Positions 11,706 through 60,470 of a DNA stretch of 64,000 nucleotides are shown piece by piece. Numbering within the stretch: position 1 is the stretch's first letter; each line of letters begins with the position of its first letter. A program made the translations under genes and the position numbers. The notes beneath the pieces were generated by a model. That model was not told the DNA's origin, searched no databases, and saw only the letters and a list, made by a program, of their open reading frames with translations. The stretch comes from Anaeromyxobacteraceae bacterium. GTDB lineage: Bacteria; Myxococcota; Myxococcia; Myxococcales; Anaeromyxobacteraceae. The DNA lies in NCBI GenBank assembly GCA_049586815.1, contig JBAVCR010000182.1, forward strand, positions 7,056 through 71,055, read 5' to 3'.

Positions 11706-11874
11706 GCCGAGGCGATGATGCGAGCGTCGCACCATCGACGGCCTGGCGGCCGCACGGCTCCCCCCTTGCCGAGGTCGGCCGCGCCGCGGAGCAAGGGGCC
11801 GCGTGCCGGCCGGCCCGACCACGAGGCAGTGCGCCCCGGACCTCGCCTCCCCAAGCCGGGCGCCGCGCCGCCCC

Positions 11875-14906
<3,032 letters not shown>

Positions 14907-18294: not shown

Positions 18295-18312
18295 CGTGCT
18301 AGAACGGGCAGG

Positions 18313-20112
18313 ATGCAGCGCTCCGCGACGCCATTCCGCCGGGCCCTGGCCCTCTTCCTCGCCTGCCAGCCCGTGCTCTGGATGAGCAACGTGGCCTACG
18401 CGCAGTCGCTCGGGCAGGGGTACGAGATGCAGCGCCCCGACCCCCGCAGCCAGGACGGGCAGGCGGCCGGTGCGGCGTCGCAGCAGGCCTCCCCACAGCA
18501 GCTCCAGCTCCTCCAGCAGCAGATGGGGGGACAGGGGGCCTTCGGCTCCACCCAGCCGCCCACCTCCGGCCAGCCCGGGGGATCGGGGCTGCTCGGGACG
18601 CCGAGCTTCGGCGTCCCCGGGGCCGCCTCGGAAGGAGAGGGGCTCCGGGTCGACCAGCCGCGCATCCCCCAGGCCTCCACGACGTCACCCCCGGTCGACG
18701 AGCCCATCGACCCGGCGCGCTACGTCCTCGGGCCGAACGACATCCTCGAGCTGCACTTCTGGGGGGTCGAGAACTTCCGCGTCCGCGTGACGGTCGACCT
18801 CGAGGGGAGGGGGTTCGTACCCAAGATCGGATACCTCCCGCTCGGAGGGAAGACGCTCGCAGAGGCCCAGAACATGCTCCGCGATTCGGTGGCCCGGTAC
18901 TTCCCGAAGCTCGGCTTCGGGGTGAACCTGGTCGAGCCGCGCACCTTCCTCGTGCAGGTCGTCGACGACGTGGCCCGGCCCGGCTCCTACCCGGCACGCG
19001 CGATCGAGCGCGTCGCCACGCTGATCCAGCGCGCCGGGGGCTTCGGCCCGAACGCCTCCCGCCGCCGCATCGAGGTGCGCCGCCGCGACGGCACGGTGAT
19101 CACCGCCGACCTGCTCCTCTACGCCATCACGGGCGACGTGAAGCACAACCCGTACGTCCTCGACGGCGACGCCATCCGCGTCCCCTTCCAGTCCCTCGTG
19201 GCGAGCATCGGCGGCGCGGTGAACCGTCCCGGGCGCTACGAGCTCGTGGGCACGAACGACCTCGCCGAGCTGGTCGAGCTGGCGGGAGGTCTCACCCCGG
19301 GCGCCACCACCGGCCTGCCGGTGCAGGTTGTCCGGCGCGCCCCCGAGGAGAAGCTGGTTCGCCTCTCCTTCGACTTCTCCACCGAGGGCAAGCTGCCCCT
19401 CGTGCCCATCGTCCGCGAGGACAGCGTCTGGATCCCCGCCTTCCTCGAGCTGCAGCAGTCGGTGACCATCACCGGCGCGCTCGCCGGGGTCGCGCCCACT
19501 GCCGGCGTGGCGGGGACTACGACGGCGCTCGCCACCGGCGGAGCCAACGCGAACAGCGCCACGAGCGCAATGAACGACGACGGCGGGGCCACGCGGCGCC
19601 TGCCCTTCGCCCAGGGCGATACGGTCCGGAGCATGCTCGAGCGGGTGGGCGGCGTGGGCCCCCTCGCGGACCTCAAGGGCTCCTACATCCTCCGGAACAA
19701 CCAGGCCATCCCGGTCGACCTGTACGCGCTCGTCATGATGCGCGACCTCAGGGCCGACAAGCCGGTGGAGCTCGGCGACACCATCGTCATCCCGTTCAAG
19801 CGGCCGAACGTGCTGGTCGAGGGAGCGGTCTTCAAGCCGGGACCGTACCCCTACAATCCGAACTTCAACGTCGAGCAGTACCTGGCCCTCGCCGGCGGTC
19901 CCAACCGCTTCGCCCAGAGCACCGACAACGTCTACATGGTGACGCCGGAGGGGCAGACCAGGGAGTTCGCCCCGGACCTGAAGGTCGAGCCGGGCGCGTC
20001 GCTCGTGGTGCCGGAGCGGAACTTCTCCCGGAGCGAGGTGGTGGCCATCATCCTCGCCGGGGCGGGCCTCCTGCTCAGCGGCGTCACCATCTGGCTGACC
20101 CTTCGCAAATGA
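18313..20112 (+). CDS. polysaccharide export (OPX/Wza-like) protein with repeated SLBB domains
   Basis: 599 aa with a signal peptide, a Q/G/P-rich linker and a Poly_export-like segment (YVLGPNDILELHFWG ... VDLEGRGFVPKIGYLPLGGKTLAEAQNML). Repeated soluble-ligand-binding beta-grasp-like segments follow. A C-terminal hydrophobic helix (VVAIILAGAGLLLSGVTIWL) is present. Confidence 0.7.
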   Translation: MQRSATPFRRALALFLACQPVLWMSNVAYAQSLGQGYEMQRPDPRSQDGQAAGAASQQASPQQLQLLQQQMGGQGAFGSTQPPTSGQPGGSGLLGTPSFGVPGAASEGEGLRVDQPRIPQASTTSPPVDEPIDPARYVLGPNDILELHFWGVENFRVRVTVDLEGRGFVPKIGYLPLGGKTLAEAQNMLRDSVARYFPKLGFGVNLVEPRTFLVQVVDDVARPGSYPARAIERVATLIQRAGGFGPNASRRRIEVRRRDGTVITADLLLYAITGDVKHNPYVLDGDAIRVPFQSLVASIGGAVNRPGRYELVGTNDLAELVELAGGLTPGATTGLPVQVVRRAPEEKLVRLSFDFSTEGKLPLVPIVREDSVWIPAFLELQQSVTITGALAGVAPTAGVAGTTTALATGGANANSATSAMNDDGGATRRLPFAQGDTVRSMLERVGGVGPLADLKGSYILRNNQAIPVDLYALVMMRDLRADKPVELGDTIVIPFKRPNVLVEGAVFKPGPYPYNPNFNVEQYLALAGGPNRFAQSTDNVYMVTPEGQTREFAPDLKVEPGASLVVPERNFSRSEVVAIILAGAGLLLSGVTIWLTLRK

Positions 20113-27205: not shown

Positions 27206-28747
27206 ATGCGGATCAACGTCGTCTCGTACCTGGAGGAAGCTTCGAGCGCCGTCCGCGATGCCCGCGTCGCGATCATCGACGGCGATCGCACCTACACCTT
27301 CGCCGAGGTGAAGGCGAACGCGAAGCGTTGCGCAACCCTCATCCTCCGCCGCCACGACGCCACGGGAACCCCCATCGCCGTGTTCCTCCCGAAGTCGGCC
27401 CAGACCGTCTTCGCCGACCTCGGGATCGTCTACAGCGGAAACGCCTATACCAACCTCGACGTGAAGTCGCCCGTGCCGCGCCTGCAGGCGATCCTTCGCA
27501 ACATAGAGCCCGCCCTCGTGGTCACGTCCCGCGGGCTGATCGACCGGGTGGAAGCCCTCGGGTTCTCGCGAGACCGGATCCTCCTCGTCGAGGAGGCCGA
27601 GGACGCCTCGGTCGCCCACGACGAGCCGGTCCTGCTCCAGCGTCTCGACCGCGTCATCGACACCGACCCGCTATGCATCATCAACACCTCTGGCTCCACC
27701 GGGATCCCGAAGGGCGTGGCGCTCACCCACCGCGGGACGATCGACTTCATGGACTGGGTCTTCGATCGGTTCGACTGGGGCGGCGAGGTGCGCATCGGAA
27801 GCCTGTCCCCGTTCTACTTCGACATCTACACCCTGGAGCTGTTCCTCTGCCTGGCGCGGGGTGCGACGCTGGTCATCATCCCCGACCAGCTGGCCATCTT
27901 CCCCGCGAAGCTGATGGCGTTTCTCCAGGCCCAGGCGATCACCTTCGTCTTCTGGGTTCCGACCATCATGGTCAACATCTCGCATCAGGATCTGCTCGCG
28001 CAGTTCCCGCTGCCCTCGCTGAGCCGCGTCTTCTTCGCCGGCGAGGTGTTTCCCACGAAGCACCTCAACCGCTGGAGGAGGGCGTTGCCGGGCGCCCAGT
28101 TCGTCAATCTGTACGGGCCGATCGAGATCCACGTCGACTGCACCTACTTCGTGGTCGACCGCGACTTCGACGACTCCGAGCCCATCCCGATCGGGTTCCC
28201 GTGCCGGAACACCGATGTCCTCATCCTGAACGAGAAGAACCAGCGCTGCGGGATCGGGGAACCCGGCGAGCTGTGCATCCGCGGGAGCTCGCTCGGCCTG
28301 GGCTACTGGAACGATCGCGAGAAGACGGCCAGGGCCTTCGCCCAGAATCCACTCCAGACCCACTACCCCGAGCTCATCTACCGGACCGGGGATCTCGTTC
28401 GCACCAACGAACGCGGCGAGATCATGTTCATCGGTCGCAACGACTTCCAGATCAAGCACCAAGGCTACCGGATCGAATTGCCCGAGATCGAGCATCAGGT
28501 GCTCGCCATCGACGGGATCGTGAACGCCTGCGTCCTCTACAACAAGGACGCGAAGGAGATCACGCTCTTCTACCAGGCGATCGGCGAAGGCCCGACCACC
28601 GCCCGGATCCGGGAGGAGCTACTCAAGGTTCTCCCCAAGTACATGCTTCCCACGGCATTCCACCGCCTGGACGAGATGCCCCGGAATCCCAACGGGAAGA
28701 TCGACCGGAACGGCCTCGCAGGCCGCATCCACGGGAAGGGCGGATGA
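27206..28747 (+). CDS. stand-alone amino-acid adenylation enzyme (DltA-like carrier-protein ligase)
   Basis: The ATG at 27206 gives a 513-aa product. The A-domain cores are INTSGSTGIPKGV (A3), FYFDIYTLELF (A4, with Asp at the alpha-amino-binding position), YGPIE (A5), YRTGDLV (A7), GRNDFQIKHQGYRIELPEIE (A8) and NPNGKIDRN (A10). No C or T domain is fused. Confidence 0.85.
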   Translation: MRINVVSYLEEASSAVRDARVAIIDGDRTYTFAEVKANAKRCATLILRRHDATGTPIAVFLPKSAQTVFADLGIVYSGNAYTNLDVKSPVPRLQAILRNIEPALVVTSRGLIDRVEALGFSRDRILLVEEAEDASVAHDEPVLLQRLDRVIDTDPLCIINTSGSTGIPKGVALTHRGTIDFMDWVFDRFDWGGEVRIGSLSPFYFDIYTLELFLCLARGATLVIIPDQLAIFPAKLMAFLQAQAITFVFWVPTIMVNISHQDLLAQFPLPSLSRVFFAGEVFPTKHLNRWRRALPGAQFVNLYGPIEIHVDCTYFVVDRDFDDSEPIPIGFPCRNTDVLILNEKNQRCGIGEPGELCIRGSSLGLGYWNDREKTARAFAQNPLQTHYPELIYRTGDLVRTNERGEIMFIGRNDFQIKHQGYRIELPEIEHQVLAIDGIVNACVLYNKDAKEITLFYQAIGEGPTTARIREELLKVLPKYMLPTAFHRLDEMPRNPNGKIDRNGLAGRIHGKGG

Positions 28748-29565
28748 GCCGGCCCGTGACCGCAGGCTCCGTCCTGGAGGCCTTCGCCCGGGTGAAGTCG
28801 GGCGGCGGCGGCTTCCTCACCAACTTCTACGCGACTCCGGACATCGTCGATCGCTGGGCCACACGCGGATCGCTCCGCCTGCTGGAGCTGGAGGGCGCGG
28901 TCTTGCTGCTCCGCAGGGACCAGGACTTCGACCACCTCAGCTACGCTGCAACCGACCTGCCCCGGCTGACCGAGGCGCTCCGGGCCCCCGCCCTGGCTGG
29001 CGACACCCTGACGGCGGACCTGATCGGCAGGGAAAGTGATCTCGGTCGGGTGGTCGGGGCCTTCGAGACGGCGGAATTCCACCGTCATACCTCGCTCGTC
29101 CGGCTGACCCGGATGGCGGATCCGGCGTTTCCCGACGACTACTCGGATTCCCAAGTGGTGTCCGGTCGCCGCGAGGACGGCCCCGCCGTTCAGGCCTTCC
29201 TGGCGCGGCTCCTCGATCGCTTCGCGGAACAGCTTCCCGAGGTCGACGAGATCGAGGCTGCCGCCGAGCGGGGGAACCTGCTGCTCGAGCGGCGCGGCGC
29301 CGACCTCGGAGGGGTCCTCCTCTTCGAGGCCACCGGGCAGACCGCAGTGCTGCGTTACTGGTTCGTCAACGACAGGTTCCGGGATCAGGGCATCGGCGCG
29401 CGCCTCATCAAGACCTTCTTTCGCACCTGCCGGTCGAGCCGCCGCATCGTGCTATGGGTGATCGCCGACAACCACGACTCGATCGCCAAGTACGGGCACT
29501 ATCGGTTCCGGCCCGAAGGTTTGGTCGATCACGTGATGATCCGGAAGGGAGAACGCCTCGCGTGA
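28744..29565 (+). CDS. GNAT-family acyltransferase-like protein
   Basis: The ATG at 28744 overlaps the upstream stop (ATGA). The product is 273 aa. The C-terminal half carries a GNAT motif-A-like segment (YWFVNDRFRDQGIGARLI ... IVLWV...N..SI..Y...GF). Only the last 273 codons of the 970-aa track ORF were accepted. Confidence 0.55.
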   Translation: MSRPVTAGSVLEAFARVKSGGGGFLTNFYATPDIVDRWATRGSLRLLELEGAVLLLRRDQDFDHLSYAATDLPRLTEALRAPALAGDTLTADLIGRESDLGRVVGAFETAEFHRHTSLVRLTRMADPAFPDDYSDSQVVSGRREDGPAVQAFLARLLDRFAEQLPEVDEIEAAAERGNLLLERRGADLGGVLLFEATGQTAVLRYWFVNDRFRDQGIGARLIKTFFRTCRSSRRIVLWVIADNHDSIAKYGHYRFRPEGLVDHVMIRKGERLA

Positions 29566-29792
29566 ATCGCATCGAAGAAGTTTTGAAGGGCATCCGGCCC
29601 GAGTTCGATTTCACGAAGTCGCAGGACTTCATCTCCGACGGCATGCTCGATTCCTTCGACGTCGTCACCCTCGTCTCCGAACTGGACCGGACGTACGGCA
29701 TCTCCATCGAGGGCACCGACATCCTTCCCGAGAACGTCCAGAGCATCGATGCCATCCGGAGGCTCCTCCGGAAGTACGGGGTCGCTCCGTGA
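29562..29792 (+). CDS. acyl/aminoacyl carrier protein 1 (DltC-like)
   Basis: The GTG at 29562 overlaps the upstream stop (GTGA). The product is 76 aa. The phosphopantetheine-site motif is DGMLDSFDVVTLVSELD. Confidence 0.75.
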   Translation: MNRIEEVLKGIRPEFDFTKSQDFISDGMLDSFDVVTLVSELDRTYGISIEGTDILPENVQSIDAIRRLLRKYGVAP

Positions 29793-30883
29793 ACCTGGCA
29801 TTCCGGGGCAGGAAGATCGCCGGGCTGCTCACGGTTCTTCCCGCGAACGAGCGGACCTTCGTGGAGGAGATGTCGAACTTCAACTTCCCGGTGGCCCGCT
29901 CGATGAAGCTGAAGGAGGTGATGGGGTACGACAGGCACCGCCTCGTCGACGGCCCGGTTTGTGCCAGCGACCTGGCCGTGCACGGCCTCGAGCACCTCTT
30001 CGCCTCCGGGCGCCTCGGGCGTGACGACTTCGACGCGCTGGTCGTCGTCACCCAGTCCCCCGACTTCCTCATGCCGCCGACGAGTAGCGTGATCCAGGGC
30101 CGCCTCGGCCTCAAACACGACCTGTTCTGCCTGGACATCAACCAGGGATGCGCAGGTTTCCTCATCGGCCTGATGCAGGGGTTCCTGCTCCTCGACCAGC
30201 CCACGATCTCCCGCGTCGTTCTCGTCAACGTCGACGTGCTGAGCCGAAAGGTCTCCACCAAGGACCGGAACAGCTACCCCCTCATCGGTGATGCAGCGTC
30301 GATCGCCGTCCTGGAACGAAGCGAAGACCCCGGAATCATCCACGCCAACCTCAAGATGGACGGTACCCGCGCGCAGGCACTCACCATCCCCGCGGGTGGC
30401 TTCCGGCTTCCCTCCAGCCCGGAGACCGCCGTCATGGAGGAGGACGCCGAGGGGAATCTCCGGGCGAAGGACCACCTGCGGATGGACGGGTCGGCCGTGT
30501 TCAATTTCGTCCAGGTCGAGGTCCCGCCGATGATCGACGCGCTGCTCGCCACGGCCGGGGTCACGCACGCGGAAGTCGACGCCTACCTCTTCCACCAGCC
30601 CAACCGGTTCATGCTCCAGAAGCTGGCGGACAAGATGAAGGTTCCTCACGAAAAGATGCCGAGCAACATCGTGGAACATTTCGGAAATTCCAGCGGAGTC
30701 ACCATCCCGCTCGCCATCGTCTTCAACTTGCGGGAGAAACTCCTCTCCGATAGCATCCGCGCCTGCTTGGCTGGGTTCGGGGTGGGGCTGACCTGGAGCT
30801 CGATGCTCCTGCGCCTTGGCCCCATGAATTTCTGCGACATGATCGATTTCGAGGGGGGAAGTGTCCGTGCAGGAGTTTCTTGA
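29789..30883 (+). CDS. KASIII (FabH-like) ketosynthase/acyltransferase
   Basis: The GTG at 29789 overlaps the upstream stop (GTGA). The product is 364 aa. The Cys-His-Asn triad contexts are intact: DINQGCAGF, LFHQPNRFM and FGNSSGVTIPLA. Confidence 0.85.
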   Translation: MNLAFRGRKIAGLLTVLPANERTFVEEMSNFNFPVARSMKLKEVMGYDRHRLVDGPVCASDLAVHGLEHLFASGRLGRDDFDALVVVTQSPDFLMPPTSSVIQGRLGLKHDLFCLDINQGCAGFLIGLMQGFLLLDQPTISRVVLVNVDVLSRKVSTKDRNSYPLIGDAASIAVLERSEDPGIIHANLKMDGTRAQALTIPAGGFRLPSSPETAVMEEDAEGNLRAKDHLRMDGSAVFNFVQVEVPPMIDALLATAGVTHAEVDAYLFHQPNRFMLQKLADKMKVPHEKMPSNIVEHFGNSSGVTIPLAIVFNLREKLLSDSIRACLAGFGVGLTWSSMLLRLGPMNFCDMIDFEGGSVRAGVS

Positions 30884-31088
30884 AGGACTTGCCGAGATTC
30901 TCGACGTGGACGAGGTGAAGGCGTCCGATACCCTGGACGGCTTCCCCGAGTGGGACTCGCTGGCGGTCCTCTCGGTCGTGGCGAGCGTCGACTCGAAGTA
31001 CGGTGTGAACCTGACCTCGGCCGAGGTTCGGGGCGCCGCGACTCCGGAGGCCCTCTTCGCGGTCATCGCCCGGAAGCGTGCCGGCTAG
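30861..31088 (+). CDS. acyl carrier protein 2
   Basis: 75 aa with the motif FPEWDSLAVLSVV (Ser attachment site). It overlaps the 3' end of the KASIII gene. Confidence 0.7.
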   Translation: MSVQEFLEGLAEILDVDEVKASDTLDGFPEWDSLAVLSVVASVDSKYGVNLTSAEVRGAATPEALFAVIARKRAG

Positions 31089-31842
31089 CCCGATGGACCT
31101 TGCCGGGCGGCATTACCTCGTCACCGGCGCAGGTTCGGGGATCGGCAGGGCCGTCGCCACGCTGCTGGCGGAAAGGGGTGCGACGACGAGCCTCGTCGAC
31201 GTGGCCCCGGCCGGCCTGGAGGAGACGGCCTCCCGACTCCCTGGGGGGCGCCACGGGGCTCACGTCTTCGACCTCCGGGCGACCGAAGGCATCGAGGGCC
31301 TGGTGGCGTCGGTGGTCTCGGCCGGGGGCCTCCTCCACGGAGTCGTCCACGCGGCGGGCATCCAGCAGGTCGCCCCCGTGCGCGTGCTCCATCCGGCGAG
31401 CTGGCGGGAGATCTTCGCGGTGAACACGGAGGCCGGCCTGGCGCTCGCCAAGACCCTGTCGAGTCGCAAGGTCTATGCTGGGAGCCACGGGGCCGTGGTC
31501 TTCATCTCCTCCGTGATCGGACTGACCGGCAGCCCGGGTGCCGTGGCGTACTCGATGAGCAAGTCGGCCCTCCACGGCATGACCCGGTCGCTCGCCCTCG
31601 ACCTGGCGCCCCGGAAGATCCGCGTGAACTGCGTCGCGCCTGGGTTCGTTCGCACGCCGCTGCTCGAACGCACCGAGAGGCTCTGGACGGAGGACCAGCG
31701 GAGGCAGGTGGAGGCGAGACACCCGCTGGGATTCGGGGAGCCTGAGGACGTAGCGAACGCCGTCGCCTTTCTCGTCGCCGACACCGGAAGGTGGATCACG
31801 GGAACGGTCCTCGTCGTGGACGGGGGGTACCTGGCCCAATGA
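31078..31842 (+). CDS. SDR-family oxidoreductase 1 (FabG-like ketoreductase)
   Basis: It has TGAGSGIGRAVA (TGxxxGxG), the catalytic YSMSKSAL (YxxxK) and the C-terminal GTVLVVDGGY. The alternative ATG at 31093 is possible. Confidence 0.85.
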   Translation: MPASPMDLAGRHYLVTGAGSGIGRAVATLLAERGATTSLVDVAPAGLEETASRLPGGRHGAHVFDLRATEGIEGLVASVVSAGGLLHGVVHAAGIQQVAPVRVLHPASWREIFAVNTEAGLALAKTLSSRKVYAGSHGAVVFISSVIGLTGSPGAVAYSMSKSALHGMTRSLALDLAPRKIRVNCVAPGFVRTPLLERTERLWTEDQRRQVEARHPLGFGEPEDVANAVAFLVADTGRWITGTVLVVDGGYLAQ

Positions 31843-32591
31843 CCGAACGGCCCATGCTGACGCTCCTCACCGGAGCCTCCTCGGGAATCGGGCGGCAGAT
31901 GGCCATCCGGCTCTCCGCGACGCGCAGGCTCCTCCTGCACGGCCGGGATGCGGCACGGCTCGCCTCCACGCTGGCGGCCTGCCACGACCCGTCCTCGCAT
32001 CGGATCTGGCGCCACGATCTCTCCGATTCCGCCGGCGTCGGGGGCGAACTCTCCCGCGTCATGGAGGAGCAGCAGGTCGCCGTCGACGGATTCGTCCACT
32101 GCGCCGCGCTCCTCCAGATCCTGCCGCTGCGAAACCATCCGCTCGAGGACGTCCGGAAGACCTTCGAGGTGAACTTCTTTTCGGCCATGGAGATCTCGAG
32201 GGCGCTGACCCGGAAGAAGGTGAACGAGCGGCACCTCCGCTCGATCGTGTTCATCTCCAGCATCGCCAGCCAGTTCGGCGCGCGCGGGTTCTCGGCCTAC
32301 TGCGCCTCCAAGGGGGCGCTCGACGCGCTCATGAAGGCGCTGGCCGTCGAGCTCGCCCCGGGGGTTCGCGTCAACTCCGTCCTGCCAGGGGGAATCCGGA
32401 CCGAGATGACCGCGAAGATCTTCGAGACCCCCGAGACGGCAGCGAGGCTGGAGAAGGATTACCCCCTGGGCATCGGGGAGCCCGAGGACGTCATCCAAAT
32501 GGTGGACTTCCTCCTGTCGGATAGGGCCCGGTGGATCACCGGGCAGCAGATGGTCGTGGACGGTGGCCGCACGGCGAACATCACCGCCTGA
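31839..32591 (+). CDS. SDR-family oxidoreductase 2
   Basis: The ATG at 31839 overlaps the upstream stop (ATGA). The product is 250 aa with TGASSGIGRQMA, YCASKGAL and GQQMVVDGG. Confidence 0.8.
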   Translation: MTERPMLTLLTGASSGIGRQMAIRLSATRRLLLHGRDAARLASTLAACHDPSSHRIWRHDLSDSAGVGGELSRVMEEQQVAVDGFVHCAALLQILPLRNHPLEDVRKTFEVNFFSAMEISRALTRKKVNERHLRSIVFISSIASQFGARGFSAYCASKGALDALMKALAVELAPGVRVNSVLPGGIRTEMTAKIFETPETAARLEKDYPLGIGEPEDVIQMVDFLLSDRARWITGQQMVVDGGRTANITA

Positions 32592-33237
32592 TCGCGGCGC
32601 GCTGGGGCTCGTCGTCGAGGTCGTGCAGAGCACCCTCTTCGGCCAGAACTCCTACCTCGTGGTGGCTCCGAAGGAGGCAGCGGCCGTGGTCGTGGACCCC
32701 GGATTCGGTTGCGCCGAGGAGATTGGCGCACGGCTGGAGACCCGGGCAGCGAGCCTCGATCTCATCCTGCTCACCCACGAGCACTTCGATCACCTCGGTA
32801 ACCTGAACGAGCTGAAGGCCGCCCACGGTGGAAAGGTGGTGGCCACGCGGGAATGCTCGGGGCGGCTCGGGGATCCCAAGGCGAATCTCTCGGCGTTCCA
32901 CGGCGGCCTGAGCTACTCGGCGGGCCCTGCGGACTTGATCGTCGAGGACGTGGGCCCGGTCCTCGACTGGCGCGGGCACGCGATCCGGTTCCATCCCAGC
33001 CCCGGTCACTCCCCGGGAAGCCACTGCATCGAGATCGAGGGGCGTCTCTTCACGGGTGATACGCTCATCCCGGGGACGAAAACGGTGGTAAAGCTTCCTG
33101 GAGGCAGCAAGGAAAAGCTCGCTGCCACCATGCATTACATCTTCTCGACCTTCCCTGGCGCCACGCTCGTGCACCCCGGCCACGGTCCAGTCATCCCCCT
33201 CTCCGCAACCTGCCAGGAACTGCACCTGCCCCCGTGA
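32563..33237 (+). CDS. MBL-fold metallo-hydrolase
   Basis: It has the LLTHEHFDH (HxHxDH) zinc motif, followed by PGHSPGS and HPGHG. The exact start between 32563 and ~32620 is uncertain. Confidence 0.7.
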   Translation: MAARRTSPPDRGALGLVVEVVQSTLFGQNSYLVVAPKEAAAVVVDPGFGCAEEIGARLETRAASLDLILLTHEHFDHLGNLNELKAAHGGKVVATRECSGRLGDPKANLSAFHGGLSYSAGPADLIVEDVGPVLDWRGHAIRFHPSPGHSPGSHCIEIEGRLFTGDTLIPGTKTVVKLPGGSKEKLAATMHYIFSTFPGATLVHPGHGPVIPLSATCQELHLPP

Positions 33238-33827
33238 TGAAGAGGCTCTTCGATCTCGTGCTCGCCGGCCTGCTCCTCGTGCCGCTCCTCCCGATCCTCG
33301 CGATCGAGGCGCTGGCCATCCGGATCGACTCCAAGGGCAGCCCGCTGTTCGTCCAGGAACGGGTGGGGCTGCGTGGCCGGTCCTTCCGCATGTTCAAGTT
33401 CCGGACGATGGTCCCCCCGGAGCACAGCCTCGACGCCACCGGAAAGCTGAGGCCTGACGCGGAACGAATCACCAGGCTCGGCGCCTTCCTCCGCAAGACC
33501 AGCCTCGACGAGCTCCCCCAGCTCTTCAACATCATCCGGGGCGACATGAGCTTCGTCGGGCCGCGGCCGACGTTGCGGTACCAGGTCGATCGGTACGACG
33601 GGTTCCAGCGTCGGCGCCTGGAAGTCAAGCCTGGCATCACCGGGCTCGCCCAGATCCGGGGCAGGAACAGACTGTCCTGGGAGGAGAAGATCCGGCACGA
33701 CGTCGAGTACGTCGACACGCGCTCGTTCCTGGGAGACCTCGGAATCCTGGCCGCCACGGTGCGCGTCGTGCTCCGTCGTGAGGACGTCGAGTTCGTGAAG
33801 AACGACCGCATCAGCAAGGTCGACTGA
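33234..33827 (+). CDS. small monotopic phosphoglycosyl transferase (PglC/WbaP-C-terminal-type sugar transferase)
   Basis: 197 aa with KRLFDL.LAG..L....P......A.I...S.GSPLF.QERVG..G..F.M.KFRTM ... DELPQLFN...G.MS.VGPRP. The start overlaps the upstream stop. Confidence 0.9.
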   Translation: MMKRLFDLVLAGLLLVPLLPILAIEALAIRIDSKGSPLFVQERVGLRGRSFRMFKFRTMVPPEHSLDATGKLRPDAERITRLGAFLRKTSLDELPQLFNIIRGDMSFVGPRPTLRYQVDRYDGFQRRRLEVKPGITGLAQIRGRNRLSWEEKIRHDVEYVDTRSFLGDLGILAATVRVVLRREDVEFVKNDRISKVD

Positions 33828-33841
33828 ACCAGGTGGGCGCC

Positions 33842-34471
33842 ATGAGCCGGAGACTCTTCATCGTCGGTGCAGGTTCCTTCGGGCGCGAGTTGGAGGGCCA
33901 CCTGGCGGCCGTCCCGTCCGGTCGTCGCGACTGGGAAGTCGAGGGATTCCTCGACGACGACCCGGCTGCTCTCGAAGGCTTTCCGTCCGACCACCGTGTG
34001 CTGGGGCCGGTCGATGGATTCGGCTTTCGCGACGGGGACCTCGCCGTCCTCGCAATCGCCAAGCCCTCCACGAAGAGGAAGGTCTTCGAGAGCCTAGCGG
34101 GACGGGTCGAGGTCATGACCTTCGTCTCGCCCGACGCCATCGTCGGCAAATTCACGAGACTGGGGACAGGGTGCGTGATCGGGCCACGGGTGATCCTGGG
34201 GCCGAACGTCACGCTCGGGGACGCCGTGTTCGTGAACTCCGGGTCGATGGTGGGTCACGACGCTTCCATCGGTTCCTTCAGCTCCCTCATGGCAGCGAAC
34301 AACGTCGCCGGCGGGTGTCGCATCGGGGAGGGGGTCTTCGCTGCGTCCACGGTCACCATCATCCCGGGTCGCAAGATCTGCGACGGCGCCTACCTCGGGG
34401 CGGGAAGCGTCGTCATCCAGGACGTGAAGGAGCCCCGGACCGTGTTCGGAAACCCGGCTCGCTACGTCTGA
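33842..34471 (+). CDS. NeuD/PglD-family sugar N-acyltransferase (left-handed beta-helix)
   Basis: It has an N-terminal Rossmann-like LFIVGAGSFGRE segment and C-terminal hexapeptide repeats (IG.G.VIGP.V.LGPNV.LGD.VFVNSGS.VGHD..IG). The ATG at 33842 is preferred (AGGTGGG upstream); the track start is the GTG at 33833. Confidence 0.8.
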   Translation: MSRRLFIVGAGSFGRELEGHLAAVPSGRRDWEVEGFLDDDPAALEGFPSDHRVLGPVDGFGFRDGDLAVLAIAKPSTKRKVFESLAGRVEVMTFVSPDAIVGKFTRLGTGCVIGPRVILGPNVTLGDAVFVNSGSMVGHDASIGSFSSLMAANNVAGGCRIGEGVFAASTVTIIPGRKICDGAYLGAGSVVIQDVKEPRTVFGNPARYV

Positions 34472-34480: not shown

Positions 34481-35614
34481 ATGACGAAGTCCCGCATCTA
34501 CCTCTCAGTCCCCCACATCGGGCCGAACGAGGAGTCATACGTCCACGAGGCGTTCGCCACGAACTGGATGACCACCGTCGGGGCCAACCTCGACGCATTC
34601 GAGAAGGCCTTCTCGGAGCGGATCGGACAGCCCTGCGTGGCGCTGGCGAGCGGCACGGCCGCCATCCACCTGGGACTCATGCTTCTCGGCGTGGGGCCGG
34701 GCGACGAGGTCATGGTCTCCGACCTGACCTTCGTGGCCAGCGTGAACCCCATCCGCTACCTGGGCGCGGAGCCGGTGCTCGTCGACTCCGACCGCTCCTC
34801 GTGGAACATGGACCCAGCGCTCCTCGCCTCGGCCCTCGAGGACCGGGCGCGCCGCGGGAAGCTGCCGCGAGCGGTCGTGGTGGTGGACCTCTACGGGCAG
34901 TCGGCCGACATGGACCCCATCGTGGCGGCCTGCCGGAAGCACGGGGTTCCCGTGCTGGAGGACGCCGCCGAGGCGGTCGGCACGCTCTACCGGGGGCGGC
35001 CGGCCGGCACGAGCGGCGACGTCAACGTCTTTTCCTTCAACGGCAACAAGATCATCACCACCACATCGGGGGGCATGCTCGCCTCGCCCCGGCGCGACTG
35101 GGTGGAGAAGGCCCGCTTCTGGTCGCAGCAGTCGCGCGACCCGCGCGTCGAGTACCACCACACCGAGATCGGCTTCAACTACCGGATGTCGAACGTGCTC
35201 GCGGGCATCGGCCGCGGGCAGCTCGAGGTGGTGGACCTGCGGGTCCGGCAACGACGGGGGGTGTTCGAGCGCTACCGGGAGGCCTTCGCCGACCTCCCGG
35301 GGCTCGAGCCGATGCCGGAGGCCCCCTTCGGCCTGCACACCCGCTGGCTCTCCTGCTTCCTCGTCGACGAGGCCGCCCTGGGCGTCTCGCGGGACGGGAT
35401 CCTGGCGGCGCTCGCCGCGGAAAGCGTGGAGGGGCGCCCGGTCTGGAAGCCAATGCACCTCCAACCGCTCTACGCGGGGTGCGACCGGTACGGGGGCGAG
35501 GTGGGCGCTGACCTGTACCAAAGGGGGCTCTGCCTGCCGAGCTCGAGCTCCCTCACGAGCGAGGAGCAGGCGCGGGTGGTCTCCCTCGTCCGGAAGGCCG
35601 CCGGGCGGGTGTAA
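34481..35614 (+). CDS. DegT/DnrJ/EryC1/StrS-family sugar aminotransferase (PglE-like)
   Basis: 377 aa with YLSVPHIGPNEE.YV.EAF..NW....G, SGTAA.HL, VFSFNGNKIITT (PLP Lys context) and NYRMSN..A.IG..QL. Confidence 0.9.
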   Translation: MTKSRIYLSVPHIGPNEESYVHEAFATNWMTTVGANLDAFEKAFSERIGQPCVALASGTAAIHLGLMLLGVGPGDEVMVSDLTFVASVNPIRYLGAEPVLVDSDRSSWNMDPALLASALEDRARRGKLPRAVVVVDLYGQSADMDPIVAACRKHGVPVLEDAAEAVGTLYRGRPAGTSGDVNVFSFNGNKIITTTSGGMLASPRRDWVEKARFWSQQSRDPRVEYHHTEIGFNYRMSNVLAGIGRGQLEVVDLRVRQRRGVFERYREAFADLPGLEPMPEAPFGLHTRWLSCFLVDEAALGVSRDGILAALAAESVEGRPVWKPMHLQPLYAGCDRYGGEVGADLYQRGLCLPSSSSLTSEEQARVVSLVRKAAGRV

Positions 35615-35729: not shown

Positions 35730-37739
35730 ATGCACCGGCTCTTGGGTAGACTGCGAGCGCTGACAGCCTTCGGGGGACACACGGGCATGCGGAGGGTACA
35801 GGGAAGGTCGGCGGCGCGCTTCTCGGCGCTCATGGCGCTCGACATGCTGGCGACGGCGTTCGCCTACATGCTGGCGTCGGTGGTGCGTTTCGAGGGCATG
35901 CCGCCACCCGAGTGGCTCCCCGACATCAAGGCCGCCTTCCCGGTTCTCGTCGGCTCGCGGGTGCTCGTCCTCTGGGTGATGAAGATGCACCGCTGGTCGT
36001 TCTTCCTCTCCGGCCTGGAGGAGGCGGTTCGGCTCGCCGTGGCCACTCTGGGCGGCACGGTGGTCTTCGTCGTCGCCTGGTACGGCATCCACGGGCACGG
36101 GCTCCCGGTCTCCATCGTCCTCCTCGAGCTCCTCCTCACCACCGGCATCCTCGCAGCCATCCGGTACTCGCCCCGCTTCACGGCGAGCTTCCTCGGCGAG
36201 CGGATGGACGACGGACGGACGAAGGCCATCATCGTGGGCGCGGGAAGCGCCGGTGACCTGCTGCTCCGCGACGTGCGCCGCTCCCCGGAGAAGAAGATCC
36301 GGGTGGTGGGGTTCGTGGACGACGCGCGCCACAAGCAGGGGTCCACGCTCGGCGGCAAGCCCATCATGGGCACCATCGACGACCTGCCCGACCTCATCCG
36401 CAAGCACGAGGTCTCGCTCGTCATGCTGGCCATCATGAACCTGCCCGCCGAGCGTCTCCGCCACATGCTGGCGCTCTGCTCGGGCTCCAAGGCCAAGTTC
36501 AAGATCATCCCGGCGTCGTTCACCCAGATGGACGACAAGATCAGCGCCGCCATCCTCCACGACCTCTCCCCGGAGGACCTGCTCCCGCGCGTGCAGGTCG
36601 ACTTCGACCAGGGGGAGATCCGCGGCAAGATCCGCGGCCGCCGGGTGCTCATCACCGGCGGCGCGGGCTCCATCGGCAGCGAGATCGCCCGGCAGGTGGC
36701 CGAGCACGAGTGCGCCAAGCTCGTGCTCGTGGACGTGAACGAGAACGACCTCTACCTGAACGCCCGGCGGCTGCAGGCCGAGTACCCGGAGCTCATCGTG
36801 CGGGCCGAGGTGGCCGACGTCCGCGAGCCCGACCGGCTGCTCCGGCTCGGCAGGCGCTACCGTCCGGAGATCGTCTTCCACGCCGCCGCCCACAAGCACG
36901 TGCCGCTCATGGAGGACGCCCCCGAGGAGGCGGTGAAGAACAACGTCTTCGGCACCCTCAACGTGGCCCGGATGGCCGACGCGGCGGGGGCGGAGCGGTT
37001 CGTCCTCATCTCCACCGACAAGGCCGTGCGCCCCAGCTCGGTCATGGGAGCCACGAAGCGCATCGCCGAGATGGTGGTGCGCGACCTCGGCCACCGCAGC
37101 AAGACCCGCATGACGGCGGTGCGCTTCGGCAACGTGCTCGGCTCGGCGGGGAGCGTCATCCCCATCTTCAAGCAGCAGATCGAGCGGGGCGGGCCGGTCA
37201 CCGTCACGCACCCCGAGTGCACGCGCTACTTCATGACCATTCCCGAGGCGGTGGGGCTCGTGCTGGTGTCGGGCCTCAACGACTACGGCGAGCTCTGCAT
37301 CCTGGAGATGGGCGAGCCGGTGCGCATCGCCGATCTCGCCCACCACCTCATCACCATGGCCGGCTTCGTCCCCAACCTCGAGATCCCCATCGTCTACACG
37401 GGGCTCCGTCCCGGCGAGAAGCTCCACGAGGAGCTCATGACCGAGGAGGAGGAGAAGACGAGCCGGGCCCGGAACCGCATCCTCACCGCCGAGAGCCCGC
37501 CGCCGCCCGCCGACCTGAGGGAGCGGCTCCACGAGCTCCGGAAGCTGGCGGAGACGGGCGAGCCGCAGGCCCTGCTCCGGGCCATGCGAGAGCTCGTGCC
37601 GAGCTACCGCACGCCGGAGCCGGAGCCGATGCCCGCTGACTTGAAGGGCGGCCAGCTCGCGCCGGCGCGGAAGGAAGACGCGTTCGACCAGGACGCCACC
37701 CAGCCGCAGTCGTTCCCGGTTCCGCCGGGACGGGCGTAG
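35730..37739 (+). CDS. membrane-anchored NDP-sugar 4,6-dehydratase (CapD/PglF-like polysaccharide biosynthesis protein)
   Basis: It has four N-terminal TM helices, then IIVGAGSAG, VLITGGAGSIGSE, HAAAHKHVPLME, STDKAV.P.SVMGATKR and the FGNV.GS.GSV.P.F..QI..GGP.T.T signature. Confidence 0.9.
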   Translation: MHRLLGRLRALTAFGGHTGMRRVQGRSAARFSALMALDMLATAFAYMLASVVRFEGMPPPEWLPDIKAAFPVLVGSRVLVLWVMKMHRWSFFLSGLEEAVRLAVATLGGTVVFVVAWYGIHGHGLPVSIVLLELLLTTGILAAIRYSPRFTASFLGERMDDGRTKAIIVGAGSAGDLLLRDVRRSPEKKIRVVGFVDDARHKQGSTLGGKPIMGTIDDLPDLIRKHEVSLVMLAIMNLPAERLRHMLALCSGSKAKFKIIPASFTQMDDKISAAILHDLSPEDLLPRVQVDFDQGEIRGKIRGRRVLITGGAGSIGSEIARQVAEHECAKLVLVDVNENDLYLNARRLQAEYPELIVRAEVADVREPDRLLRLGRRYRPEIVFHAAAHKHVPLMEDAPEEAVKNNVFGTLNVARMADAAGAERFVLISTDKAVRPSSVMGATKRIAEMVVRDLGHRSKTRMTAVRFGNVLGSAGSVIPIFKQQIERGGPVTVTHPECTRYFMTIPEAVGLVLVSGLNDYGELCILEMGEPVRIADLAHHLITMAGFVPNLEIPIVYTGLRPGEKLHEELMTEEEEKTSRARNRILTAESPPPPADLRERLHELRKLAETGEPQALLRAMRELVPSYRTPEPEPMPADLKGGQLAPARKEDAFDQDATQPQSFPVPPGRA

Positions 37740-37811: not shown

Positions 37812-38276
37812 ATGATCGACCGGGTCCTCGTCGTCTGCGTGGGCAACATCTGCAGGAGCCCGATGGCCGAGGGGCTCTTCCGGGAGAGGCTCGGACGGCG
37901 CCCGCGGTTCCAGGTGTCGTCGGCGGGCATCTCCGCCCTCCACGGCGACCCGGCCGACTCCCTCGCCCAGCAGCTCCTCCGCGAGCGCGGCATCGACATC
38001 GGCGCGCACCGGGCCCGGCAGCTCACGCCCGCCCTCGTCTCCCAGGTCGAGCTCGTGCTCGTCATGGAGCAGGGGCACGAGCGGGCCGTGCTCGCCATGG
38101 TCCCCCAGGCCCGGGGCAAGGTGCACCGGCTGGGCAAGTTCGGGAACTTCGACGTGCCCGACCCGTACCGCCAGGGTCGCCCCGCCTTCGAGCAGTCGCT
38201 GCGCCTCATCGAGCGCGGGCTCGACGACTACGAGAAGGCCTTCTGGCCGCCCTTCCTCCGCAAGGTGAACGCGTGA
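37812..38276 (+). CDS. wzb: low-molecular-weight protein-tyrosine phosphatase
   Basis: 154 aa with the P-loop VLVVCVGNICRSPMAE (CX5R-S) and the DVPDPY Asp loop. Confidence 0.9.
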   Translation: MIDRVLVVCVGNICRSPMAEGLFRERLGRRPRFQVSSAGISALHGDPADSLAQQLLRERGIDIGAHRARQLTPALVSQVELVLVMEQGHERAVLAMVPQARGKVHRLGKFGNFDVPDPYRQGRPAFEQSLRLIERGLDDYEKAFWPPFLRKVNA

Positions 38277-39385
38277 ATCGTCGGATCGCCCTCGCCCTCC
38301 TCGCCTCCGTCGGAACCGCCTGCGGCCTCGCGCCCGGCATCCAGATGTCCGACGCCGAGGTCACCGACCGGGCCCACGAGCAGGGGGACACGAACTTCCA
38401 GATCACGGTGGTGAGCCCGTTCCTGCTCGCCCGCCTGGCCGACGACGACGCCGCGGCCGCCCGGGCGCGCAAGCCCGACCCGAACGCGGCCGAGTTCTCC
38501 ACCTACCAGTACAAGATCGCCCCGCTCGACGTGCTCTCGGTCGTGGTGTGGGACCACCCCGAGCTCACGTCTCCCACCGGCCAGTTCCGCGGGCCGGAGG
38601 ACAACGGCCTCCCCGTCTACGCCGACGGGACCATGTTCTACCCGTTCGTCGGCTACCTGAACGTCTCGGGCAAGACGGTCATCGAGGTGCAGCAGGAGCT
38701 CACCCGCCGTCTCAAGCACGCCATCAAGGATCCGCAGGTGGCGGTGCGCGTGGCGGCGTTCCGGGGGAAGCGGGTGGAGGTGACGGGCGAGGTGAAGGCG
38801 CCGCAGACCATCCCCATCTCCGACATCCCGCTGCGGGTCTCCGACGCGGTCGCGAAGTCGGGCGGCTTCGTCCCCGAATCGAACCCGGCCAGCGTGACCT
38901 TGCTGCGGAGTGGCAAACCCATCTCCCTCGACCTCATGAGCTACTTCGAGGACGGGGACGTGAAGCAGAACTGGCTCCTCCAGGACGGCGACGTGGTCCA
39001 CGTGGGGCACATCTCACGGAGCCAGGTCTACGTCTTCGGCGAGGTGAAGAAGCAGGGGACGCGCCCCATGTACCGCGGGCGGCTCAACCTGGCGCAGGCG
39101 CTGGGCGACAGCGAGGGGTTCGACTTCACCACCATGAAGCCGGTGGTCTACGTCTTCCGCGAGAAGGAGCCGGGGCGCCCGCAGATCTTCCGGCTCGACG
39201 TCTCCTCGGCCGACTCGCTCATCCTGGCGAGCCAGTTCGGGCTCCTGCCCCGGGACGTGGTCTTCGTGGCCCCGAACGAGCTGGCGCGGTTCAACCGCGT
39301 GGTGAGCCAGATCGCTCCCTTCGTGAACATCATCTGGCAGACCTGGAACATCGTCACCACGACGAAGGTGCTGCTCGGCATCTAG
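38273..39385 (+). CDS. wza: outer-membrane polysaccharide export lipoprotein
   Basis: 370 aa. The start overlaps the wzb stop. It has a lipoprotein-like signal (LLASVGTAC) and the Poly_export motif YKIAPLDVLSVVVWDHPELT ... VYADGTMFYPFVGYLNVSGKTV.EVQQEL. SLBB segments and a C-terminal helix are present. Confidence 0.9.
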   Translation: MNRRIALALLASVGTACGLAPGIQMSDAEVTDRAHEQGDTNFQITVVSPFLLARLADDDAAAARARKPDPNAAEFSTYQYKIAPLDVLSVVVWDHPELTSPTGQFRGPEDNGLPVYADGTMFYPFVGYLNVSGKTVIEVQQELTRRLKHAIKDPQVAVRVAAFRGKRVEVTGEVKAPQTIPISDIPLRVSDAVAKSGGFVPESNPASVTLLRSGKPISLDLMSYFEDGDVKQNWLLQDGDVVHVGHISRSQVYVFGEVKKQGTRPMYRGRLNLAQALGDSEGFDFTTMKPVVYVFREKEPGRPQIFRLDVSSADSLILASQFGLLPRDVVFVAPNELARFNRVVSQIAPFVNIIWQTWNIVTTTKVLLGI

Positions 39386-42307: not shown

Positions 42308-42753
42308 GGCGTCATCCTGCCACGGGAGGGAGGGGCCGTCGAATGGTCAATCCATTGCCAATTGCGTCGCGAACGCCGATGCGAAGTATTGCGGACGATT
42401 TGCGTGTCTTTCTCCTTGACCCACGGTGAATTGCGGCGCCGCCGCGCCTCTCTCCGGGTCCGCATCCTCGGGGCGGCGGGGCCTCCCCGGTCCAGGCGCC
42501 GCACCGGGAAGCTCCGTGTTTTCGACGTGATCCGATGTGGGAGAGATGCCGACACGGTACCCAAACCGTGTCCGTGGCGCGCGGTACGTCGTAATTGACG
42601 ATGCGCAAAAATAGGCCCTAAAAGTCCACTTTCGCGTAGCCATCTTGGGTGACACCTGAATGTGATTCGTCTCACTCATTGCCACTGCGACATTTTGTCC
42701 CTACGTTACGCCGTACTGGCTCGAGCGGCCTTCCGCCGCGGGGGAGTTCCAGG

Positions 42754-54977: not shown

Positions 54978-54999
54978 TTCTTGGAAATGGGAAAGGACC

Positions 55000-55788: not shown

Positions 55789-55900
55789 GCAACGATCCGA
55801 TGCCCTGCCGGCGACGGGAACGCGGAAGTCAAGTCGGACCCAACCGCATTGCGATCATGGATTCGCCGCGTGGGCGTCCAGCGGCGCCGCGGGAGCCGGA

Positions 55901-57106: not shown

Positions 57107-57212
57107 AGTTGTCAGAATGGAGTCGAAGTATCAGACGGGGGGGTGCCGTTAGATCCGTCGTCCCAAGAGCGAGACGGTCCGCCACGATTCAAGGGATCGG
57201 TGCGCAGAAAAG

Positions 57213-59323: not shown

Positions 59324-59329
59324 GCCGGG

Positions 59330-60446: not shown

Positions 60447-60470
60447 CGGTGGATACCAAGGTCCATATCT

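Follow-up and report, generated by a model that had tools for sequence, protein, structure and literature searches.

Introduction

In bacterial polysaccharides and glycoproteins, serotype, recognition by phages and antibodies, and surface properties are set by the non-carbohydrate N-acyl groups that amino sugars carry. In one known class of system a private acyl carrier protein (ACP), a 3-ketoacyl-ACP synthase III (KASIII), a ketoreductase and a NeuD/PglD-like transferase together give an N-hydroxyacyl amino sugar. The viosamine island of Pseudomonas syringae pv. tabaci (vioA, vioB, vioS, vioR and acp) is responsible for N-(3-hydroxybutanoyl)-viosamine on flagellin, and a vioR mutant loses the modified viosamine (PMC3927599). 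The wfpC-wfpG genes of Flavobacterium psychrophilum have been assigned to 4-N-(3,5-dihydroxyhexanoyl)-Qui2NAc4N, a function deduced from the structure of the glycan (PMC6519341). Here we describe a cassette of eight genes at positions 27206-33237 of a 64,000-nt stretch of DNA from an Anaeromyxobacteraceae bacterium (the window, by which we mean the whole stretch), in which components of this class stand with an amino-acid adenylation enzyme (A), an aminoacyl-type carrier protein (CP1) and a candidate N-capping enzyme. The cassette, a real and intact operon here, is widespread, modular and apparently unstudied. It probably makes an amino-acid-derived, carrier-bound acyl group that is finally N-linked to an amino sugar.

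As in the window, the viosamine island sets a KASIII (VioS), a small ACP, the FabG-like VioR and a NeuD/VioB-family transferase beside a DegT-family aminotransferase, and in both cases a private carrier would hold the acyl group before its transfer to the 4-amino group of a 4-amino-4,6-dideoxyhexose; VioS and VioR are likened here to the KASIII and short-chain dehydrogenase/reductases (SDRs) of the cassette by their description, not by their sequence. The island differs in having no A enzyme, aminoacyl carrier, N-capping enzyme, second SDR or metallo-beta-lactamase (MBL)-fold hydrolase; its primer is presumably acetyl-CoA, its sugar is dTDP-linked and its target is flagellin rather than a Wzx/Wzy polysaccharide. 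The wfpC-G system shares with the window a UDP-Qui2NAc4N scaffold from pglF/pglE with ketosynthases and a ketoreductase alongside, and a locus-specific ACP is the predicted source of the acyl group for its PglD homologue. Variants of the cassette with two ketosynthases and two reductases parallel its two rounds of extension, but wfpC-G uses an acetate starter and has no A domain, CP1 or capping enzyme. The window itself has a KASIII, an ACP, a FabG-like ketoreductase, a NeuD/PglD-like transferase and a DegT enzyme, all in synteny, while the unit formed by A, the cap and CP1 lies beyond the viosamine and wfp cassettes that have been described (PMC3927599, PMC6519341).

A preliminary description of the window had named D-alanylation (dlt) and the Vibrio cholerae O1 rfbKLMNO tetronate pathway as the nearest precedents while observing that the gene set matches neither. 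The latter observation stands, but the viosamine island and wfpC-G are closer. In DltA and DltC, as in the cassette, an A enzyme that stands alone is coupled with a small carrier of its own, and DltA models are among the top matches of the cassette A enzyme; the specificity code differs, however, and the cassette has no DltB or DltD, its aminoacyl group would be processed by a ketosynthase, and its product would end on a nucleotide sugar. The rfbKLMNO genes and the LuxC/LuxE/ACP/FabG sets of enterobacterial flagellin islands also provide carrier-dependent acyl groups for amino-sugar N-acylation from genes within a glycan locus (PMC4875605), but do so through other families (LuxE acyl-protein synthetase, LuxC acyl-CoA reductase, CaiC-type ligase), with no KASIII and no amino-acid A domain.

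The logic that we propose for the cassette is that of hybrid initiation by nonribosomal peptide synthetases (NRPSs) and polyketide synthases (PKSs), namely adenylation, thioester formation, on-carrier N-capping, Claisen extension with malonyl and ketoreduction. The F domain of LgrA formylates Val-S-PCP, on the peptidyl carrier protein (PCP) of an F-A-PCP module, bleomycin assembly uses Ala and a PKS module to give 4-amino-3-hydroxy-2-methylpentanoate, and pactamycin biosynthesis forms an intermediate through the loading of an ACP by an adenylating enzyme and a KASIII-like condensation. This pactamycin intermediate, a 3-aminobenzoate/polyketide-derived beta-ketoacyl group, is held on the discrete ACP PtmI (PMC9092360). 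Hybrid systems of this kind are mostly multidomain assembly lines for secondary metabolites, whereas the cassette consists of separate small proteins and its product is predicted to go to a nucleotide sugar through a hexapeptide, AAC(3)-like or RimL-like N-acyltransferase. It can be regarded as a stand-alone (type II) hybrid that combines NRPS-like with fatty-acid/polyketide-like enzymes for an unusual N-acyl group, and extends a known kind of system rather than being something categorically new. We found no description of a genetic basis for amino-acid-containing acyl groups on amino sugars, and the searchable literature yielded no paper on an A/carrier/ketosynthase cassette with bacillosamine.

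Results

Gene content and operon structure

The eight open reading frames (ORFs) are all intact and lie on the + strand, and their matches to Pfam and NCBIfam agree with the identities and positions given to them in the preliminary description:

27206..28747, + strand: A, stand-alone amino-acid adenylation enzyme, 513 aa (PF00501, 1.3e-63; TIGR01733)
28744..29565, + strand: tandem-GNAT acyltransferase, 273 aa, proposed N-capping (N-acetylating) enzyme (PF00583, residues 166-250)
29562..29792, + strand: CP1, aminoacyl/peptidyl-carrier-like, 76 aa, Ser in GMLDSFD (PF00550)
29789..30883, + strand: KASIII, FabH-like ketosynthase, 364 aa, Cys-His-Asn triad (PF08545, PF08541)
30861..31088, + strand: CP2, ACP-like second carrier protein, 75 aa, Ser in EWDSLA (WDSL motif; without a Pfam match)
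31093..31842, + strand: SDR1, FabG-like short-chain reductase, 249 aa, probably accessory (PF13561, 6.5e-53)
31839..32591, + strand: SDR2, short-chain reductase, 250 aa, candidate core ketoreductase (PF13561, 2.9e-45)
32563..33237, + strand: MBL-fold hydrolase, 224 aa, HEHFDH, accessory, possible thioesterase (PF00753, 4e-23)

The motifs on which the earlier identifications had relied (FYFDIYT, LDSFD, WDSLA, HxHxDH and the triad NQGC, HQPN and GNSS) are all present. Both SDRs match PF00106 as well as PF13561, and NCBIfam contains no model specific to any of the cassette proteins. The genes for the most part form the overlapping chain that had been proposed, including the start of pglC: the A/GNAT, GNAT/CP1, CP1/KASIII, SDR1/SDR2 and MBL/PglC joints are 4-nt ATGA/GTGA overlaps, KASIII and CP2 overlap by 23 nt and SDR2 and MBL by 29 nt at the starts chosen, and a scan of the + strand from 27.2 to 38.4 kb gave no terminator-like site. 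The cassette is translationally coupled to pglC in the window.

Distribution and modular variants

About 110 independent loci, spread over at least seven phyla, share this gene order. The recurring arrangement is far beyond chance, and the cassette is not specific to the Anaeromyxobacteraceae genome. A scan of one genome per species gave 15 syntenic loci, in Burkholderiaceae, Sphingomonas, Silanimonas, Rhodanobacter, Verrucomicrobiia, Geothrix and other Acidobacteriota and a metagenome-assembled genome (MAG) of Candidatus Obscuribacterales, and from a metagenome scan 80 loci were kept out of at least 551 matches. Four additional loci came from the contigs of A homologues and three from contexts seeded with KASIII, and Paenibacillus cellulosilyticus also carries the cassette, with an A enzyme 51% identical. 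Overall, it abounds in Acidobacteriota, Pseudomonadota, Verrucomicrobiota, Myxococcota, Bacillota and others of soil and fresh water.

Around a conserved core of A, an N-capping enzyme (a tandem GNAT or a formyltransferase), CP1, KASIII and CP2, the loci vary in their reductases, in the presence of a second ketosynthase and in the terminal N-acyltransferase, which is of three kinds. The components were scored in the 55 loci whose sequence extends 6 kb or more downstream of A, to which all the fractions out of 55 refer:

CP1: 55/55
Capping enzyme adjoining A: 54/55 (tandem GNAT in 45, formyltransferase in 9)
CP2: 49/55, detection being limited by the shortness of the gene
Any SDR: 46/55
Second KASIII paralogue: 10/55
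DegT aminotransferase within 8 kb: 32/55

Five architectures can be recognised, the gene identities, motifs, operon structure and comparative architecture all being direct observations:

(a) no extension: A-cap-CP1-RimL-DegT with no ketosynthase, in L050 (formyltransferase) and L096 (GNAT)
(b) one ketosynthase and no reductase: A-GNAT-CP1-KASIII-CP2, in five loci
(c) one ketosynthase with SDR2: loci with an AAC(3)-type transferase
(d) one ketosynthase with SDR1 and SDR2: loci with a NeuD/PglD-type transferase, including the window
(e) two ketosynthases with two SDR2-like reductases: ten loci

These variants appear to form a graded series of 0, 1 or 2 chain extensions. Since variant (a) has no ketosynthase, A, the cap and CP1 would make up a self-sufficient unit whose product goes straight to the amino sugar. 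The sugar pathway also differs between loci, with PglF/PglE/PglC in the window, RmlA/RmlB and DegT in L109, and FdtA and DegT in L072, which suggests that the cassette is a portable unit able to plug into different amino-sugar routes. In L025, L026 and L107 it comes directly after a GT2 glycosyltransferase, with DegT before the GT2 in L025 and L026, and a membrane glycosyltransferase is found nearby (PMT_2 in L026, GT87 in L025 and L107). By analogy this layout can be read as ArnB/ArnC/ArnT-like, and suggests that in these loci the acylated sugar may travel as a polyprenyl-phosphate sugar to a periplasmic acceptor and not into a repeat unit.

Two loci show further departures. In Geothrix paludis (L009) a second set of genes without an A enzyme lies at 16751-19478 on the - strand, a few kb from the full cassette, and comprises a carrier (48% identical to CP2), an SDR2-like gene, a KASIII paralogue (44%) and another SDR; it looks like a hydroxyacyl module of the viosamine-island type beside the amino-acid-primed one. 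In an Acidobacteriaceae MAG (L014, 12601-14438) KASIII and SDR2 are split over several frames, either from decay of the cassette or, more likely, from frameshift errors in a long-read MAG.

The adenylation enzyme and the carrier proteins

The A enzyme passes TIGR01733, the model for amino-acid adenylation, with 341.6 bits against a cut-off of 317.4, and the core motifs A3 (TSGSTGxPKG), A4 (Asp235), A5 (NxYGPxE) and A10 (Lys517) can be read in its translation. Asp235 and Lys517 are retained in 120 of 120 homologues, bearing out the earlier assignment to the amino-acid type. The specificity code of the enzyme (Stachelhaus, PheA numbering) is DILFFALVDK, and all 120 homologues are identical or differ at one position, giving DILF[FLWYI]ALVDK; with a code so nearly invariant the whole family would use one substrate. 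The nearest published code, we take it, is the EntF Ser code DVWHFSLVDK, with some features of Ala and Gly codes, and relative to EntF the hydroxyl-binding His278 and Ser301 are replaced by Phe and Ala. The top PDB match is the A domain of LgrA module 2, the second A domain, which we take to be the Gly-activating one. The substrate may be a small neutral amino acid, Ala or Gly, though the certainty of this assignment is low.

We considered whether the enzyme is a DltA, and rejected this, since the curated cut-offs are not reached (TIGR01734, 273.8 against 559.85; NF003417, 277.5 against 476) and the operon has no MBOAT/DltB or DltD gene. The homologues include hundreds of stand-alone proteins at 63-80% identity. 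When representative genomes were searched with the A enzyme the top 150 places were taken by giant multi-module NRPSs, the summed scores of which drown out the family.

CP1 scores 23.2 bits on PF00550 (cut-off 20.8), its Ser is invariant in 17 orthologues, and its best PDB matches include the PCP 2MY5 and the aminoacyl carrier 4H2S. In CP2, which has no Pfam match, the Ser of WDSL is invariant in 16 orthologues and the best PDB matches are ACPs of type II PKSs (oxytetracycline, frenolicin and actinorhodin), with E 0.003. Although the E-values are weak, the matches divide consistently, with CP1 probably of the PCP/aminoacyl type and CP2 of the type II PKS ACP type; the conserved Ser marks CP2 too as a probable phosphopantetheine carrier, on weaker evidence than CP1.

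The proposed N-capping enzyme

The AlphaFold2 (AF2) model of the GNAT (pLDDT 95, pTM 0.88) was matched by Foldseek to the tandem GNATs VipF, MAB_4324, MshD and WecD (E 1e-11, TM-score up to 0.69), so that the protein belongs to the tandem-GNAT family of the MshD/VipF/MAB_4324 type, and its CoA-type QGIGA loop is conserved. A PF00551 formyltransferase replaces it in 9/55 loci, either in the A-CP1 interval or just upstream of A, and in some of these the enzyme is upstream of A with nothing between A and CP1. On comparison with the PDB the formyltransferases matched sugar N-formyltransferases and the F domain of LgrA about equally. As acetyl and formyl caps seem to be interchangeable, the enzyme would be one that caps an amine. 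The sugar of the window has one free amine (C4, after PglF and PglE) and a separate PglD-like transferase, so the sugar cannot be the acceptor for both the GNAT and the PglD-like enzyme, and the capped amine would be the alpha-amine of the carrier-bound amino acid. The preliminary description had allowed that the GNAT might be the final sugar transferase; from its alternation with a formyltransferase it is most likely the N-capping enzyme of the aminoacyl amine instead. Most of the formyltransferase loci retain KASIII, and usually CP2 and SDRs also, which argues that the cap is a small acyl group and that the ketosynthase arm is not simply the source of the N-acyl cap, extension at the carboxyl end being likelier.

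The main rival assignment of the same genes would have KASIII, CP2 and the SDRs make (3-hydroxy)butanoyl-CP2 from acetyl-CoA and malonyl-CP2, A and CP1 supply the aminoacyl group, the GNAT join the two arms through an amide, and the PglD-like enzyme transfer an N-(3-hydroxybutanoyl)-aminoacyl group. All of the required activities are present in the gene set, the A domain is DltA-like at the family level and variants with two transferases exist. The decoration is also a known one, since Qui4N carrying N-[(S)-3-hydroxybutanoyl]-D-alanyl is named for Escherichia coli O123 and for Salmonella enterica O58 in a title cited in PMC7685785, and 3-hydroxybutanoyl has a tested precedent for the KASIII/ACP/ketoreductase/NeuD-like part (PMC3927599). 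The formyltransferase loci, however, most of which keep KASIII, CP2 and the SDRs, contain nothing able to join the arms, the QGIGA motif of the GNAT is of the CoA type, and the 0-extension variants keep the same GNAT without a KASIII arm. On these grounds we consider such a joining of two arms unlikely, though it is the strongest of the alternatives. A blastn search for an O123-type cluster with two low-G+C copies of the cassette against all complete E. coli genomes gave no match at the DNA level, at which divergence is high.

The ketosynthase and the reductases

KASIII matches PF08545 (53.5) and PF08541 (78.9), both past the cut-off, and is a member of the FabH/KASIII condensing family. Its triad, NQGC (Cys), HQPN (His) and GNxS (Asn; GNSS in the window), is invariant in 16 orthologues, and homologues are 71-90% identical. 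The model for housekeeping FabH, TIGR00747, gave 157.6 against a cut-off of 292.1, so this is not the FabH of primary metabolism, and no alignment to E. coli FabH is obtained for the N-terminal ~70 residues. The closest structures in the PDB are the Burkholderia FabH-like 4EFI and 3GWA, followed by bona fide FabHs, and the PDB sequence matches at E values of up to 1e-5 include none named as a KASIII-like acyltransferase (such as CerJ or DpsC).

KASIII immediately follows CP1 in 53/55 loci, and A-GNAT-CP1 lies upstream in 3/3 of the KASIII-seeded contexts; neither in these three nor in any other locus examined was this KASIII subfamily seen without A-cap-CP1. The adjacency of CP1 and KASIII is indirect evidence that KASIII may be primed by a carrier-bound acyl group, and the constant association with A-cap-CP1 also counts against the separate building of two arms outlined above. 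The preliminary description had left two routes open, either condensation with malonyl-CP2 followed by reduction and N-transfer by the NeuD/PglD-like enzyme, or a KASIII-type acyl transfer. Comparative genomics favours the first, while the invariant triad and the FabH-type structures speak against the second.

Acyl transfer by KASIII, in the manner of CerJ, ChlB6 and PtmR, is one form of a further proposal in which there is no single chain; in the other form two independent decorations are made, an N-acetyl-aminoacyl group from CP1 and a (hydroxy)acyl group from KASIII/CP2 that goes to another amine or hydroxyl. KASIII acyltransferases are known (PtmR, PMC9092360), the 0-extension variants indicate that A-cap-CP1 with a RimL-type transferase can work alone, and two small accompanying proteins follow the second arm, S146 occurring only with KASIII and CP2 in RimL-type loci and U249 accompanying the AAC(3)-like gene. 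In the window, however, the sugar has one free amine and there is one candidate for the terminal transferase, KASIII strictly adjoins CP1 and overlaps it by 4 nt, and the triad and nearest structures of KASIII are those of condensing enzymes. Both forms of the proposal are in our judgement quite improbable.

SDR2 is present in 46/55 loci and is the sole SDR in the AAC(3)-type variants, while SDR1 is present in 27/55, nearly always with a NeuD/PglD-type transferase. The two reductases that had been counted alike as members of the set are thus both present, but their distribution suggests that SDR2 is the core reductase and SDR1 an accessory one.

Terminal N-acyltransferases, the sugar pathway and the hydrolase

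The genes immediately downstream of the cassette are pglC/D/E/F-like:

33234..33827, + strand: PglC-like small polyprenyl-phosphate sugar-phosphate transferase, 197 aa (PF02397, 1.4e-62)
33842..34471, + strand: NeuD/PglD/VioB-family hexapeptide N-acyltransferase, 209 aa, proposed terminal transferase (TIGR03570)
34481..35614, + strand: PglE-like DegT-family sugar aminotransferase, 377 aa (its L023 orthologue, 78% identical, has PF01041 DegT_DnrJ_EryC1)
35730..37739, + strand: PglF-like membrane-anchored UDP-GlcNAc 4,6-dehydratase, 669 aa (the gene at the same position in L023 has PF02719 Polysacc_synt_2)

Hydrophobic segments are present at the N-terminus of the PglF-like translation. The locus as a whole is of the Wzx/Wzy exopolysaccharide type, with two Wza-like exporters, Wzx, a Wzy-like polymerase, glycosyltransferases, Wzb and Wzc.

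The PglD-like protein scores 160.8 bits on TIGR03570, exactly at the cut-off of 160.8, which places it in the NeuD/PglB/VioB family; it matches Hexapep (59.8) and, weakly, PglD_N (20.9 against 23.4), and its top PDB match is VioB 7TXP (residues 2-206), followed by PglB and PglD. Its orthologues, at 48-75% identity, adjoin the cassette in L023, L037, L041, L102, L108 and L109, while it is 30-38% identical to the commoner cassette-linked NeuD type. It belongs to a second clade of hexapeptide transferases associated with the cassette. A terminal N-acyltransferase is found in 52/55 loci and is of three unrelated kinds:

NeuD/PglD hexapeptide type: 27 loci
AAC(3)-like PF02522 type: 13 loci, usually with the 249-aa partner U249
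RimL-type GNAT PF13302: 14 loci, usually with the small GNAT S146

S146 (~146 aa, weakly GNAT-like) precedes the RimL-type transferase in most loci that have KASIII and CP2 (L065, L072, L081 and L083, for example) and is absent from both 0-extension loci, L050 and L096.

The MBL protein matches PF00753 with 82.8 bits, has the HEHFDH motif and is an MBL-fold hydrolase, with subfamily scores far below the cut-offs (SolJ, 54 against 350; GloB, 52 against 201). The preliminary description had taken it for a full member of the set. As it is present in only 9/55 loci it was rejected as a core component; it occurs in 6/7 loci with the window-type PglD-like transferase and in 0/16 with the other NeuD type. 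This covariation suggests that it may assist the window-type transferase clade by off-loading or editing. The weak similarity to glyoxalase II and SolJ would fit a thioester hydrolase.

That the MBL protein could release a free acid, that the PglD-like clade of the window is distinct from most cassette-linked NeuD-like proteins, and that third-position G+C is slightly atypical would all be accommodated if the cassette had entered the locus by insertion and made a free small metabolite or a lipid head group unrelated to the glycan, the PglD-like enzyme simply acetylating to ordinary N,N'-diacetylbacillosamine (diNAcBac). An N-acyltransferase lies within the cassette in 52/55 loci, however, and a sugar aminotransferase nearby in 32/55, across different sugar pathways (PglF/E, RmlA/B with DegT, FdtA), orthologues of the window-type PglD adjoin it in at least six other loci, and in the window it is translationally coupled to pglC. 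Of all the readings, one in which the product has nothing to do with the glycan is the least likely, and we would be very surprised to find it correct.

Base composition and other features of the window

A low G+C content had been put forward as a sign that the cassette was acquired. It is indeed slightly lower than that of the window (66.3% against 67.8%), but a difference of 1.5 points is too small, and we rejected this as evidence. Third-position G+C is 0.81-0.91 in the cassette and 0.95-0.98 from pglE to wzc. The identity across phyla (A 56-80%, KASIII up to 90%) is a better argument for acquisition than G+C.

Several other parts of the window are worth recording. The region 54000-63000 has a G+C content of 58-60%, against ~68-70% elsewhere, and contains three GT4-family glycosyltransferases, two class-I methyltransferases and ORFs without a Pfam match; it has the look of a second portion of the polysaccharide locus that was gained more recently. 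Components of export and anchoring appear to be duplicated, with a paralogous Wzi-like (Caps_assemb_Wzi) pair upstream of the locus at 5010-6662 and 9028-10536 and a pair of Wza-like exporters at 18313-20112 and 38273-39385. Directly after the wzc region, at 42649-47523, there is a 1624-aa ORF with a third-position G+C of 0.93, whose sole Pfam match is a weak multicopper-oxidase stretch. On the - strand, an ORF of 989 aa (11875-14844) has two separate GDP-mannose 4,6-dehydratase matches, which could reflect a fusion or the joining of two genes in the mechanical ORF call, and beside it (10602-11822, - strand) is a 406-aa protein with an HNH endonuclease domain.

Discussion

We propose that the cassette makes an N-capped aminoacyl chain that is extended by KASIII, reduced, and transferred by the PglD-like enzyme to a 4-amino sugar. 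From the gene content and comparative architecture we would rate the chances of this model being right and being wrong as equal; in it the amino acid, every chemical step and the final product are predicted. The A enzyme would activate a small neutral alpha-amino acid, most likely Ala or Gly, and load it onto holo-CP1, where the tandem GNAT would N-acetylate the tethered amino acid, as a formyltransferase would N-formylate it in other loci. KASIII would then condense the N-capped aminoacyl group from CP1 with malonyl-CP2, which may be loaded by the housekeeping FabD, to give gamma-acetamido-beta-ketoacyl-CP2. Capping before extension would make chemical sense, since a free gamma-amino-beta-ketoacyl thioester would be expected to cyclise. 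SDR2 would reduce the beta-keto group, SDR1 carrying out a second, undefined redox step, and the PglD-like enzyme would move the acyl chain to the 4-amino group of UDP-4-amino-4,6-dideoxy-GlcNAc formed by PglF and PglE. PglC would load the acylated sugar on undecaprenyl phosphate as the first sugar of the Wzx/Wzy exopolysaccharide repeat, and the MBL protein may provide accessory thioester handling (editing or off-loading) tied to the window-type transferase. The predicted substituent is 4-acetamido-3-hydroxy-butanoyl or -pentanoyl, or a longer relative.

Several points weigh against this extension model. The window type has two SDRs for a single ketosynthase, and no role is assigned to SDR1, and the candidate substrate of A was chosen by comparing specificity codes by hand. 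The fold search with the predicted GNAT structure also matched WecD, which is a sugar N-acetyltransferase, and as GNAT-fold enzymes with acyl-ACP donors exist the GNAT could join two arms. At 30-38% identity to the usual NeuD type, the PglD-like protein of the window might be an acetyl-CoA-dependent PglD. S146 and U249 accompany the KASIII arm in the RimL- and AAC(3)-type variants, which could mean that there are two separate transfers. Finally, no glycan with a gamma-acylamino-beta-hydroxyacyl group was found in the searchable literature.

In its most general form the proposal is that a widespread, horizontally mobile, dissociated NRPS/type II PKS hybrid adds N-acetyl- or N-formyl-capped gamma-amino-beta-hydroxy (statine-like) chains to amino sugars, here to a bacillosamine-type priming sugar, and is tuned by swapping parts, with 0-2 ketosynthase rounds, 0-2 reductases and three families of transferase. 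We put this forward tentatively, as something that falls a little short of an even chance.

If the extension model is true, the cassette would define a new family of glycan substituents, and would offer a free-standing set of enzymes in ~5 kb (A, cap, carrier protein, KASIII, ACP, ketoreductase and N-acyltransferase) with which nucleotide sugars could be derivatised. If instead the two arms are built separately and joined, the cassette would provide the genes so far lacking for N-(3-hydroxybutanoyl)-aminoacyl decorations, which are known. Under either model the natural series of architectures gives testable predictions, and cultured carriers are at hand in Sphingomonas sp. BK580, S. parva, Geothrix paludis, Rhodanobacter sp. 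7MK24 and Paenibacillus cellulosilyticus. The cassette is thus a candidate for a general route to amino-acid-containing N-acyl groups.

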